The position numbers are program-made. From Escherichia coli (GTDB lineage Bacteria; Pseudomonadota; Gammaproteobacteria; Enterobacterales; Enterobacteriaceae), in the NCBI RefSeq assembly GCF_017348835.2, contig NZ_CP071375.1: a DNA stretch of 64,000 nt; one strand, given 5' to 3'. Shown piece by piece: positions 38,801 to 41,800 of this stretch. Every line of letters starts with the position of its first letter. The stretch's first letter is position 1.

Positions 38801-41800
38801 CGCGCCGAAGATCACCGACAGCGCCTTCGGCACCGTACGCGGCGGCACCAGACGCATGGTCAGCGACGCCGACATCGCCCAGAACCCGCCCAGCGCCAGC
38901 CCCAGACAGGCACGACCGATTAAAAGCAAACTGAATGAGTTAGCAAAGGAAACCAGCAAACAGGAGAGCGTCAGCAAAACGGCAAATAAAATAACAACGT
39001 AGCGGCGGTCAGTGGCCTGAATTGTCTGGGTAATAAACAAACTGGCAAACATTGCCACAAAGGCGGTCACGGTCACCGATTGCCCGGCAACCCCTTCCGA
39101 AATGCCTAAATCCTGGGCCATTGGCGTTAACAAACTGACGGGCAAAAACTCAACGATAATCAGACAGGCGACGCAAAACGCCACCGAGAAAACGGCTGAC
39201 CAGTTCGGTCGGGTGATGGCATCCGCGCCGCGGTTTTCGGCAATAAATTCACTCATGGTGTTACCCGTGGCATGTTTCAGGGGAAAAGCCGACCACTTTA
39301 ACATTGAAATGTGTGACGCATTTAACGTTTTTGCAACTTTTACGGTGTTGTGGGAAAAGTTCGAGGCTGCTCGAAGAAATAAAAATCATAGGGCAAGCTG
39401 ATATGCATTTTCGCGATTGGGTTGGGGTATTGCACTTGGTGATATACTTTAATAACAGGACCTCAACGATATGCGCGTGTTTAAAACCAAATGGTTTGCA
39501 AGGGAAGCCAGGTCTCATGCAATAACAGATGAAGAGTTGTGCCGGGCCATTTTAGAAACGGAGCAAGGTAAAGCTGATGCACTTGGTGGTGGCGTTTTTA
39601 AAAAGCGCCTTCACCAAAATCGTGAGCGTGCAATTATTCTGGCAAAAGGGGGAAGCAATTGGTTTTACACGTTTTTATATGCAAAACAGGATATGTCGAA
39701 CATCAATAGTCAGGAACTGGCTGGGTTTCGTGAACTTGCAAAGCATTATGCCTTCCTGACGAAAGCCCAGCTAACAGCAATGGTTAACACTAAAGAACTG
39801 ACAGAGATCTGCTATGACTGCAAAAACTAAATTTAAAAGTCCTGCATTTGAGGCTATTCACAGCGCAGCGGCTGGATTGTCCAGCGTCGATGCTATTTCT
39901 GCCGAAACAATGCGTACTTTTGACAAAGCCTGCCTGACCAACGTGCAAGACTTACAACCTGTTGAGATAAAAGCACTGCGGGAAAAATTAAAAGTGAGTC
40001 AGCCCGTCTTCGCTCACTATCTCAATACCAGCGTTTCAACTGTACAAAAATGGGAAAGTGGCGCTAAACGCCCCAATGGCATTTCATTAAAACTGCTCAG
40101 CATTGTGCAAAAATACGGGCTGGAGGTGCTGCTGTAAATAGAACGTAGATAATACGTTCACCTACTGTCAGTTCCGATACCGGACGCGGCATGAACGTCT
40201 TATCCACCCGACAGGTCAGGCGCGGTCTGTAGGCTGATAAGACGAAGCGGTTTTAATGCAGCCAGTGAACGCCCTCGGCAGGCTGAAAGAACGCGTTATA
40301 GCGCATCTGAAAAGCATTAATATCCTGCATTTCAGGTTCGGTTTCGCGCAGAAAACCCAGCGCCAGCCTGACCTGAGCATCGGTAATCGGCGCGGCAAGG
40401 CGGGCTTTTTGTAAAATCCGATGCCATTGCAGCAGGTTCTGTTCGCTACCATCGACAATGACAATTTGCCAGATGAGCAACACCTGCGCGGCGTTTTGCA
40501 GGTGCGACTCATCCGGACGATGCAAATAACGTAAAAATTCGTCACCAGCTGACTTTCCCATTTGATCGACCATCGACTCCACGGGTACGACATCGATATT
40601 CAGCCGATCGCTGAGACGGCGAATCGCTTTTCTGGCCCCGGATGTCAGCACCCGAAAACCAACCACAAACACTACCGCCAGCGTGGCGAGCATTATCCAG
40701 ATCATGAGTTCTCCTGCGTAATCAGAACTCATGATATCTGGAAACCCTCGCCAGTTACTAATCCACCAGAATAATCTTGAGTGCAAACAGAGCTGCGACC
40801 ACCACCACACACAGGTTCAGATCGCGCCAGCGCCCGGTGCACACTTTCATGATGCAGTACGACATAAAGCCGAGTGCAATCCCTTCGGTGATCGAGAAAG
40901 TAAAGGGCATCATCACCGTGGTAATAAACGCAGGCACCGATTCGGTAAAATCATCCCAGTTAACGCGCGCCAGGCTCGAAGTCATCAGCACGCCAACAAA
41001 GATTAACGCTCCAGCGGTTGCGTAAGGAGGAACCATCGCCACCAGCGGTGAGAAGAACATAACCAACAGGAACATAACGCCGACCACGACAGCCGTTAGC
41101 CCCGTGCGACCACCGACTGCCACACCAGAAGTACTTTCAATATAGGCAGTAACAGACGAGGTACCGATAAACGCGCCCGCCACCGAACTGACGCTATCAA
41201 CATACAGCGCCTTATTCATATTGGGGAATTTACCGTTACTATCTATTAAGCCAGCTTTATCAGTTACACCAATTAATGTTCCTGATGAATCAAATAGGTT
41301 GATCAGCATAAAGGAGAAAATGATACCAGCGAGTTCAAGTGATAACGCGCCGCTCAAATCCACTTCACCAATGACGCCGCTAATATCAGGCGGAATGGAA
41401 TAGACGCCGCTAAAATGAACATCACCGAAAAATAATCCACAGCAAGACGTCACCACAATAGAAACCAGCACCGCGGCATGAAAATGACGTGATGACAACA
41501 CGGTTATAATAAAAAACCCTAAAATACCTAACAACACGCCGTGAGAACTTAAATCGCCAATCATCACCAGCGTATCTTTATTGGCGACAATAACGCCAGT
41601 ATTTTTTAATCCCATTAAGGCGATAAATAATCCGATTCCGCTGGTGATACCAATACGTAAACTTAATGGAATGTTAGAGATCATCCAGTACCGGATACGA
41701 AACAGCGTGAGCAAAAATAGCCCAATTGCGCCCCAGAATATCGCGCCCATCCCGGTCTGCCAGGAGATCCCCATCGCCCCCACGACCACGAACGCAAAGA

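Follow-up and report, generated by a model that had tools for sequence, protein, structure and literature searches.

The DNA analysed here (the window) is a stretch of 64,000 nucleotides of the Escherichia coli contig NZ_CP071375.1 (assembly GCF_017348835.2). Between nepI and yicN, and on the strand opposite to both, it carries two small overlapping genes in toxin-first order, one for a PF06296 toxin and one for a helix-turn-helix (HTH) antitoxin (Table 1). The pair is very probably a chromosomal type II toxin-antitoxin operon of the HigB2/HigA2 type, in the 'relE-yiaG' arrangement of Gerdes (2025), and an old resident beside nepI that has been deleted in K-12. An earlier note on this DNA had described two overlapping open reading frames (ORFs) at 39471-40137, sharing 17 bp and opposed in strand to nepI and yicN, with a basic 119-residue protein encoded first and a 107-residue HTH protein second. 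The ORF list, an isoelectric point (pI) of 9.2 for the first protein and the HTH_3 match of the second agree with this description; the antitoxin is also basic (pI 9.5).

Table 1. Features in and around the nepI-yicN interval, numbered from the first nucleotide of the window.
Feature	Position	Strand	Description
Toxin gene	39471..39830	+	119 aa, ATG start; PF06296, HigB2-type RelE superfamily
Antitoxin gene	39814..40137	+	107 aa, ATG start; XRE-HTH, HTH_3 E 6e-8
Overlap of the two reading frames	39814..39830	+	17 bp, from the ORF list; probable translational coupling
Putative operator	39430..39444	+	TTGCAC-TTG-GTGATA, imperfect palindrome; 2 mismatches to consensus TAGCAC-N3-GTGCTA
Putative extended -10	39440..39448	+	TGATATACT (TGn + TATACT), read from sequence; overlaps right half of operator
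Shine-Dalgarno-like AGGA	39457..39460	+	10 nt 5' of ATG 39471; read from sequence
Segment absent from K-12-type strains	39352..40175	.	Contains promoter, operator and both genes; from alignment with K-12-type locus
nepI	38072-39256	-	Strand opposite to the pair
yicN	40253-40705	-	Strand opposite to the pair
REP element pair	40176..40249	.	Between convergent antitoxin gene and yicN; context, outside the module

On the sequence evidence, both ORFs are genuine genes and not chance ORFs, because both proteins match Pfam families (PF06296, E 1.6e-41; HTH_3, Table 1) and the ratios of nonsynonymous to synonymous substitution (dN/dS) across eight Escherichia alleles are 0.175 for the toxin and 0.109 for the antitoxin, which indicates purifying selection. 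Both genes are annotated by RefSeq in strain PE164, whose DNA is 100% identical to the window here, under the names 'type II toxin-antitoxin system RelE/ParE family toxin' and 'helix-turn-helix domain-containing protein'. The RefSeq start of the toxin in PE164 is the GTG at 39477, which gives 117 residues rather than the 119 read from the ATG. Upstream of the toxin gene, the motif ACAGGA is kept in orthologous loci.

The toxin belongs to PF06296 ('RelE'), the family model of which is covered from position 1 to position 120 of 120 by toxin residues 1-113, at 141.8 bits against a gathering cut-off of 27. No other Pfam family matches the toxin at E values up to 0.1, including PF05015, PF09907, PF05016, MqsR, YoeB and YafQ, and there is no NCBIfam match. 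The family can therefore be assigned with confidence, although the earlier note had considered it not confidently assignable. Vibrio cholerae HigB2 (VcHigB2) has been placed in PF06296 by Gerdes (PMC11980606), and its sequence, confirmed against the PDB, indeed scores 34.5 bits with the model. HigB2 is a ribosome-dependent mRNase with an active site formed by R51, R64, Y82 and K84 (PMC5416850).

The AlphaFold2 model of the toxin, built from a 24-sequence alignment, has a predicted local distance difference test score (pLDDT) of 87 and consists of a strand, two helices, four strands, two helices and a strand. The model thus has the N-terminal strand, two helices, antiparallel sheet and C-terminal helix by which the RelE/BECR fold is recognised, and the toxin is predicted to adopt this fold. 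In a Foldseek search of the PDB with the model, eight V. cholerae HigB2 chains rank first.

Toxin residues R46, R53, Y70 and K72 are the putative equivalents of VcHigB2 R51, R64, Y82 and K84, a correspondence that is well supported but not proven. It draws on the motifs GGxxxKxR, R-hydrophobic strand and [YF]-x-K, on the predicted strand order, and on a bridging sequence, which is a paralogous E. coli toxin from the supplement of PMC11980606. Among 87 representatives of 50%-identity clusters, the R46 and R53 columns hold R in 82 and 84 sequences, position 70 is F in 65 and Y in 10 (75 in total), and the K72 column holds K in 76. A C-terminal His was also considered as a catalytic residue (the motif 'EICHD' is common in relatives, and the E. 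coli residue is Y115), and was ruled out because His is present in only 26 of the 87 representatives. By homology with HigB2, the toxin would be an mRNA-cleaving protein of the RelE fold.

The toxin might instead be a ParE-like gyrase poison and not an mRNA endonuclease, which we regard as very improbable. PF05016 is among the families that do not match, and the sole family that does, PF06296, has an RNase as its characterised member. Moreover, the best structural match is HigB2, conserved basic residues stand at the HigB2 catalytic positions, and the partner is an antitoxin of the HigA2 type and not a ribbon-helix-helix protein of the ParD type.

The antitoxin has a C-terminal XRE helix-turn-helix at approximately residues 46-101, to which the HTH_3 match corresponds. 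Its closest solved relative is V. cholerae HigA2 (VcHigA2), whose residues 38-93 align with residues 46-101 without a gap over 56 residues (phmmer E 4e-9). Other named families score below their cut-offs, namely YiaG (NCBIfam PRK10072, 29.1 against 110 bits), NadS (40.8 against 60 bits) and MqsA (38.8 against 61.8 in NCBIfam and 23.2 against 30 in Pfam). The N-terminal part of about 45 residues is presumed to be the toxin-neutralising segment. It is strongly conserved and is modelled as two helices (residues 10-24 and 30-40). When toxin and antitoxin were modelled by AlphaFold2 as a single chain joined by a flexible linker, from a paired alignment, the predicted template modelling score was 0.66 and the two antitoxin helices had pLDDT values of 87-95. 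The fused model agrees with the neutralisation by N-terminal helices that has been modelled for relE-yiaG modules.

Relatives of the toxin were sought in one genome per species, which yielded 494, and the best 80 loci, from alpha-, beta- and gamma-proteobacteria, were examined. In every one of the 80, the toxin gene is followed directly by an antitoxin homologue. The layout of 119 residues, 107 residues and a 17-bp overlap is found, with few exceptions, in the Enterobacterales loci, and the same overlap also occurs in Acetobacteraceae; across loci the overlap is 17 bp or ranges from 11 to 29 bp. Translation of the two genes is likely to be coupled through it. The pair therefore shows the genomic features of a type II system, that is, small adjacent co-oriented genes with conserved pairing and an HTH antitoxin with an operator-like site at its own promoter. 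The earlier note had called the module HigBA-like from its toxin-first order, and this holds in the sense of V. cholerae HigBA2 (VcHigBA2) but not in that of HigBA from Rts1.

Some of these loci differ in state. In approximately 5 of the 80, the toxin frame is truncated and the antitoxin intact, except for one of the five in which both frames are short; breakage of the toxin first is the usual order of decay in toxin-antitoxin modules. Near-identical copies of the module, together with conserved DNA upstream of the promoter, are found in Erwinia, Edwardsiella, Tatumella, Tenebrionibacter, Pectobacterium, Serratia and Edaphovirga. These copies (21 loci) form a tight, short-branch cluster in the tree and look like a recently mobile variant carried on some element. 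Clustering of proteins at 90% identity placed the 117- and 119-residue toxins and the 107-residue antitoxins in one cluster, a result that cannot reflect sequence similarity.

A palindrome precedes the operon throughout. The consensus TAGCAC-N3-GTGCTA occurs with at most 2 mismatches within 150 bp 5' of the toxin gene in 79 of the 79 loci that have enough upstream DNA, and is perfect in 54 of them. By comparison, no such match occurs among 1527 stretches of 150 bp drawn at random from these loci. Across loci, a conserved extended -10 element, TGnTATA(G/C)T, and the right half-site overlap. The counterpart of the putative extended -10 of the window is conserved as TGCTATAGT or TGCTATACT in orthologous loci. 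A generic scan for -35/-10 promoters and terminators returned nothing on the + strand, and the extended -10 is for this reason proposed from its conservation. The antitoxin presumably binds the palindrome. In the whole 64 kb, only 3 sites match the operator with at most 2 mismatches, which is no more than chance predicts.

The window allele is uncommon among carriers. It lacks 13 bp (AATAAGGGATAAA) at 39426/39427, just 5' of the operator, that are present in all six other Escherichia alleles aligned at the promoter. This deletion sets a TTG approximately 16 bp 5' of the -10 element and might alter promoter strength. Identity of at least 99% to the window over 39352-40175 is reached by only 2 of the 1716 E. 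coli carriers described below, one of which is PE164.

The segment that holds the promoter, operator and both genes is present in 1716 of 5426 complete E. coli genomes (32%), always on the chromosome and never on a plasmid. All carriers inspected have the pair between nepI and yicN, and O157:H7 and the ST131 strain EC958 are among the carriers. In K-12-type strains, approximately 825 bp (about 39352-40175) are replaced by approximately 40 bp of other sequence. The pair is thus accessory within E. coli, as the earlier note had thought probable, since comparison with the K-12 nepI-yicN region finds it absent there and most complete genomes lack it. The empty allele shares TCGAA..AGGGCAA..GAT in this order with the left end of the occupied allele, with a GAT(A) microhomology at the junction. 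As a trace of a deletion, these matches are only suggestive.

Two E. coli loci depart from this pattern of occupied and empty alleles. In GF130, the pair is missing through a larger deletion that also takes the 5' end of nepI, a gene annotated there as a partial pseudogene, and the loss is an independent event. HS-02 (NZ_CP172818, 2406-3384) has the only 78%-identical copy in E. coli, which is annotated as frameshifted. It was considered as a decaying intermediate, and was ruled out as such by its runs of A, C and G homopolymers, which make it look like an artefact of assembly or polishing.

Outside E. coli, Citrobacter amalonaticus, six Klebsiella species and one further Enterobacteriaceae genome also have the pair in the nepI-yicN interval, and in Salmonella it adjoins nepI and is divergent from it. 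Between genera, synonymous divergence (pS) is 0.70-0.83 for the pair and 0.61-0.72 for the flanking nepI and yicN. Against two other Escherichia species, the values are 0.14-0.23 and 0.23-0.33, respectively. In a neighbour-joining tree, the Escherichia, Citrobacter and Klebsiella pneumoniae modules fall into one clade. Direct repeats do not flank the segment, and none of the neighbours iatC, nepI, yicN, adeQ and adeD is annotated as a recombinase. Because of this synteny with nepI across genera, the flank-like pS, the single clade and the lack of repeats and recombinase, the state of K-12 is most likely a deletion. The pair is most likely an old resident beside nepI in Escherichia, Salmonella, Citrobacter and Klebsiella, ancestral in its presence and lost in approximately 68% of complete E. 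coli genomes.

The earlier note had spoken of a module inserted between nepI and yicN, a view that these results do not support. If some E. coli lineages had recently acquired the pair horizontally, as a mobile toxin-antitoxin cassette that entered the spacer, its presence in only a third of the genomes would be accounted for. Such an insertion would also fit the relatives on plasmids of other bacteria, the near-identical variant spread over distant Enterobacterales genera, and the roughly 40 bp of the K-12 empty site, which resemble the occupied allele only loosely. However, the pair has the same position and orientation beside nepI in Salmonella, Citrobacter and Klebsiella, its synonymous divergence follows that of the flanking genes within Escherichia as well as between genera, and the nepI-linked modules mostly form one clade. 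Nor does it occur on any plasmid in E. coli. A mobile cassette would be expected to show a target-site duplication or terminal repeats, a recombinase or attachment site, and sporadic, non-syntenic spread; here no flanking direct repeats and no neighbouring recombinase were seen, and synteny with nepI extends over four genera. Recent insertion is thus distinctly unlikely.

Under the preferred reading, a resident operon of the HigB2/HigA2 type, the module would work as follows. A single transcript would start from the extended -10 promoter at approximately 39440-39448. Its first gene would yield the RelE-fold toxin, which, by homology with V. cholerae HigB2, would enter the ribosomal A site and cut translated mRNA with R46, R53, Y70 and K72 as its active-site residues. 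The second gene would be translated, probably by coupling through the overlap, into the antitoxin, whose N-terminal residues (about 45) would bind and neutralise the toxin. The C-terminal HTH would dimerise on the palindrome over the -10 element and repress the operon. Free toxin would appear when the antitoxin is degraded or no longer made. Stabilisation of the locus, stress response and phage defence are candidates for the role of the pair.

Several findings weigh against this reading. The toxin has no match in PADLOC-DB 2.0, in which the antitoxin has only weak generic HTH matches. Searches of solved structures with the toxin, as a single sequence or as a 24-sequence profile, gave no real sequence match, and its hhalign alignment with VcHigB2 is not significant and sets the middle strands in another register. 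The link to HigB2 is therefore drawn from Pfam co-membership and the predicted fold, and the lack of a significant alignment is also why the residue mapping relies on motifs, strand order and the bridging paralogue. The fused AlphaFold2 model gives no error estimate for the interface. Each half-site of every Escherichia operator has one mismatch, although the recognition helix is unchanged. In 86% of comparisons, conservation is higher in the antitoxin, its N-terminal segment included, than in the toxin, an uncommon pattern among toxin-antitoxin pairs. In O157:H7 (strain PV15-279), ATA replaces the ATG start of the toxin. The only toxin start that remains there is the GTG two codons downstream, at a longer Shine-Dalgarno spacing, and loss of the ATG may lower toxin translation in this lineage. 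Finally, a search of open-access papers found neither a study of the nepI-linked module nor an experiment on it.

Some of these points speak for a domesticated remnant, in which the Escherichia toxin has lost some or all of its activity and selection now acts on the HTH protein as a transcription factor, possibly of the divergent nepI promoter, like the orphan YiaG of K-12. The stronger conservation of the antitoxin, the degenerate Escherichia operator and the lost ATG of O157:H7 would fit such a state, as would the long vertical residence at one locus and the loci elsewhere with a broken toxin and an intact antitoxin. Against it stand the dN/dS of the toxin, an ORF that is intact in the eight alleles read, and the retention of all putative catalytic residues. 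Both genes are annotated in the sampled carriers, and a toxin alone is seen only in HS-02, where it is attributed to assembly. In addition, the 64-kb scan found no second operator-like site near nepI, and its three matches are attributable to chance. This alternative is therefore unlikely.

A related possibility, to which we likewise give little credence, is that a once-mobile module, divergent from nepI, has been kept vertically under purifying selection since before the split of Escherichia, Salmonella, Citrobacter and Klebsiella. Its antitoxin and its operator are better conserved than its toxin, and in this reading it would now serve the host as a domesticated module for regulation or stress. 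If this were true, the host function could be, for example, a control linked to the purine-nucleoside exporter NepI, or chromosomal abortive infection, and repeated loss, as in K-12, would carry a phenotype.

The resident toxin-antitoxin operon that we favour is a genuine module of a known family, and nothing about it challenges current understanding. The analysis gives a precise family, PF06296 of the HigB2/HigA2 type, to a pair that RefSeq labels only generically, although the practical value of this is small. O157:H7 and ST131 are among the roughly one third of E. coli that carry the pair, whereas K-12 lacks it, and both the proposed operator TAGCAC-N3-GTGCTA and the putative catalytic residues can be tested. 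The pair also offers a natural case for the host function of a long-resident chromosomal toxin-antitoxin pair and for the cost of its loss, with isogenic-like occupied and empty alleles in one species.

The surroundings of the module hold further features. The REP (repetitive extragenic palindromic) pair contains an inverted repeat (40196-40204/40236-40244) and has a weak Rfam match to the REP-derived naRNA4, beyond which the Rfam search found nothing relevant. The earlier note had placed REP/BIME-like remnants at these positions. A REP pair does exist there, but K-12-type strains, which lack the module, have the same sequence in the same position. The REP pair thus belongs to the site itself and is no remnant of the module.

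The neighbours annotated in PE164 are iatC, nepI, yicN, adeQ and adeD. Just past the 3' end of nepI, iatC (31658-37870, - strand; named after the PE164 annotation) encodes a 2070-residue inverse autotransporter adhesin. In K-12-type strains, CU37RT-2, HS-02 and GF130, iatC is absent and yicS directly adjoins nepI, and iatC is also missing at the loci of Escherichia sp. E1V33 and E69. A linkage of the pair with this adhesin gene was looked for and none was found; iatC is another accessory feature of the region, one that varies independently of the toxin-antitoxin pair. DNA of the locus also appears under another name, in 1-kb contigs of the 'Collinsella sp.' metagenome-assembled genome (MAG) Map_57_008. 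Of two such contigs with nepI/toxin-antitoxin/yicN DNA, one resembles E. coli and the other Klebsiella, and this actinobacterial MAG is contaminated with Enterobacteriaceae fragments.

Among known systems, YiaG and MqsA of E. coli K-12 show a weak, HTH-level likeness to the antitoxin, with all scores below the cut-offs given above. Unlike MqsA, the antitoxin has no zinc-binding N-terminal domain, and unlike the pair described here, YiaG has no toxin partner in K-12. HigB-HigA of Rts1 and Proteus vulgaris (PF05015) shares the toxin-first order, an HTH antitoxin and a RelE-superfamily, ribosome-dependent RNase, an activity that is expected here by homology. However, Rts1 HigB belongs to a different Pfam family, which the nepI-linked toxin does not match. 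Rts1 HigB lacks the C-terminal helix and uses His-based catalysis, and its HigA is fully folded and leaves the active site uncovered (PMC5416850). The 'HigB2' of Acinetobacter baumannii was considered as a characterised relative and was ruled out as a Gp49-domain protein.

Within PF06296 (PF_RelE), 'bicistronic relE-yiaG modules' have been catalogued bioinformatically only (Gerdes, mBio 2025, PMC11980606). The supplementary table of that work contains members of the same subfamily, for example a Methylorubrum pair with the same toxin motifs, an overlap of 17 bp and a 107-residue antitoxin. The architecture of relE-yiaG modules and their proposed neutralisation by N-terminal helices of the antitoxin match the nepI-linked module, although the E. 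coli module itself was not found in the text or the examined supplementary files. The relE-yiaG pair of E. coli VREC0535 (SQP90372/SQP90371) was considered as the same module, and is instead a paralogue with phage-like neighbours, a long HigB2-like loop and an overlap of 8 bp.

The closest characterised system is HigB2/HigA2 of V. cholerae (higBA-2, superintegron; PDB 5JA9, 5JAA and 8A0X). The two toxins differ in several respects, with an identity of only about 14-22% in structural alignments and no significant sequence match. Where HigB2 has a long basic beta2-beta3 loop, the loop here is short, and the nepI-linked toxin is predicted to have an extra C-terminal helix and strand (residues 98-115). 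The antitoxin N-terminus, strongly conserved and with its two predicted helices, contrasts with that of the HigA2 type, which is intrinsically disordered and forms a helix plus a strand when it folds on the toxin. The footprinted VcHigA2 operator is a single inverted repeat over the -10 element, TGTACGC-N5-GCGTACA (PMC11006873), and thus differs in sequence from TAGCAC-N3-GTGCTA. This difference fits the residues at the four base-contacting positions, which are S75, Q78, K79 and A84 here and R68, E71, N72 and R77 in VcHigA2. The genomic setting also differs, a fixed chromosomal locus here and an integron cassette in V. cholerae. Nevertheless, both systems have a PF06296 toxin encoded first, and HigB2 offers the closest solved fold to the toxin model, with R/R/Y/K motifs at putatively equivalent positions. 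Both also combine an antitoxin with a C-terminal XRE-HTH and an N-terminal neutralising part, predicted in the present case, with a single inverted-repeat operator, putative here, that overlaps the -10 element.

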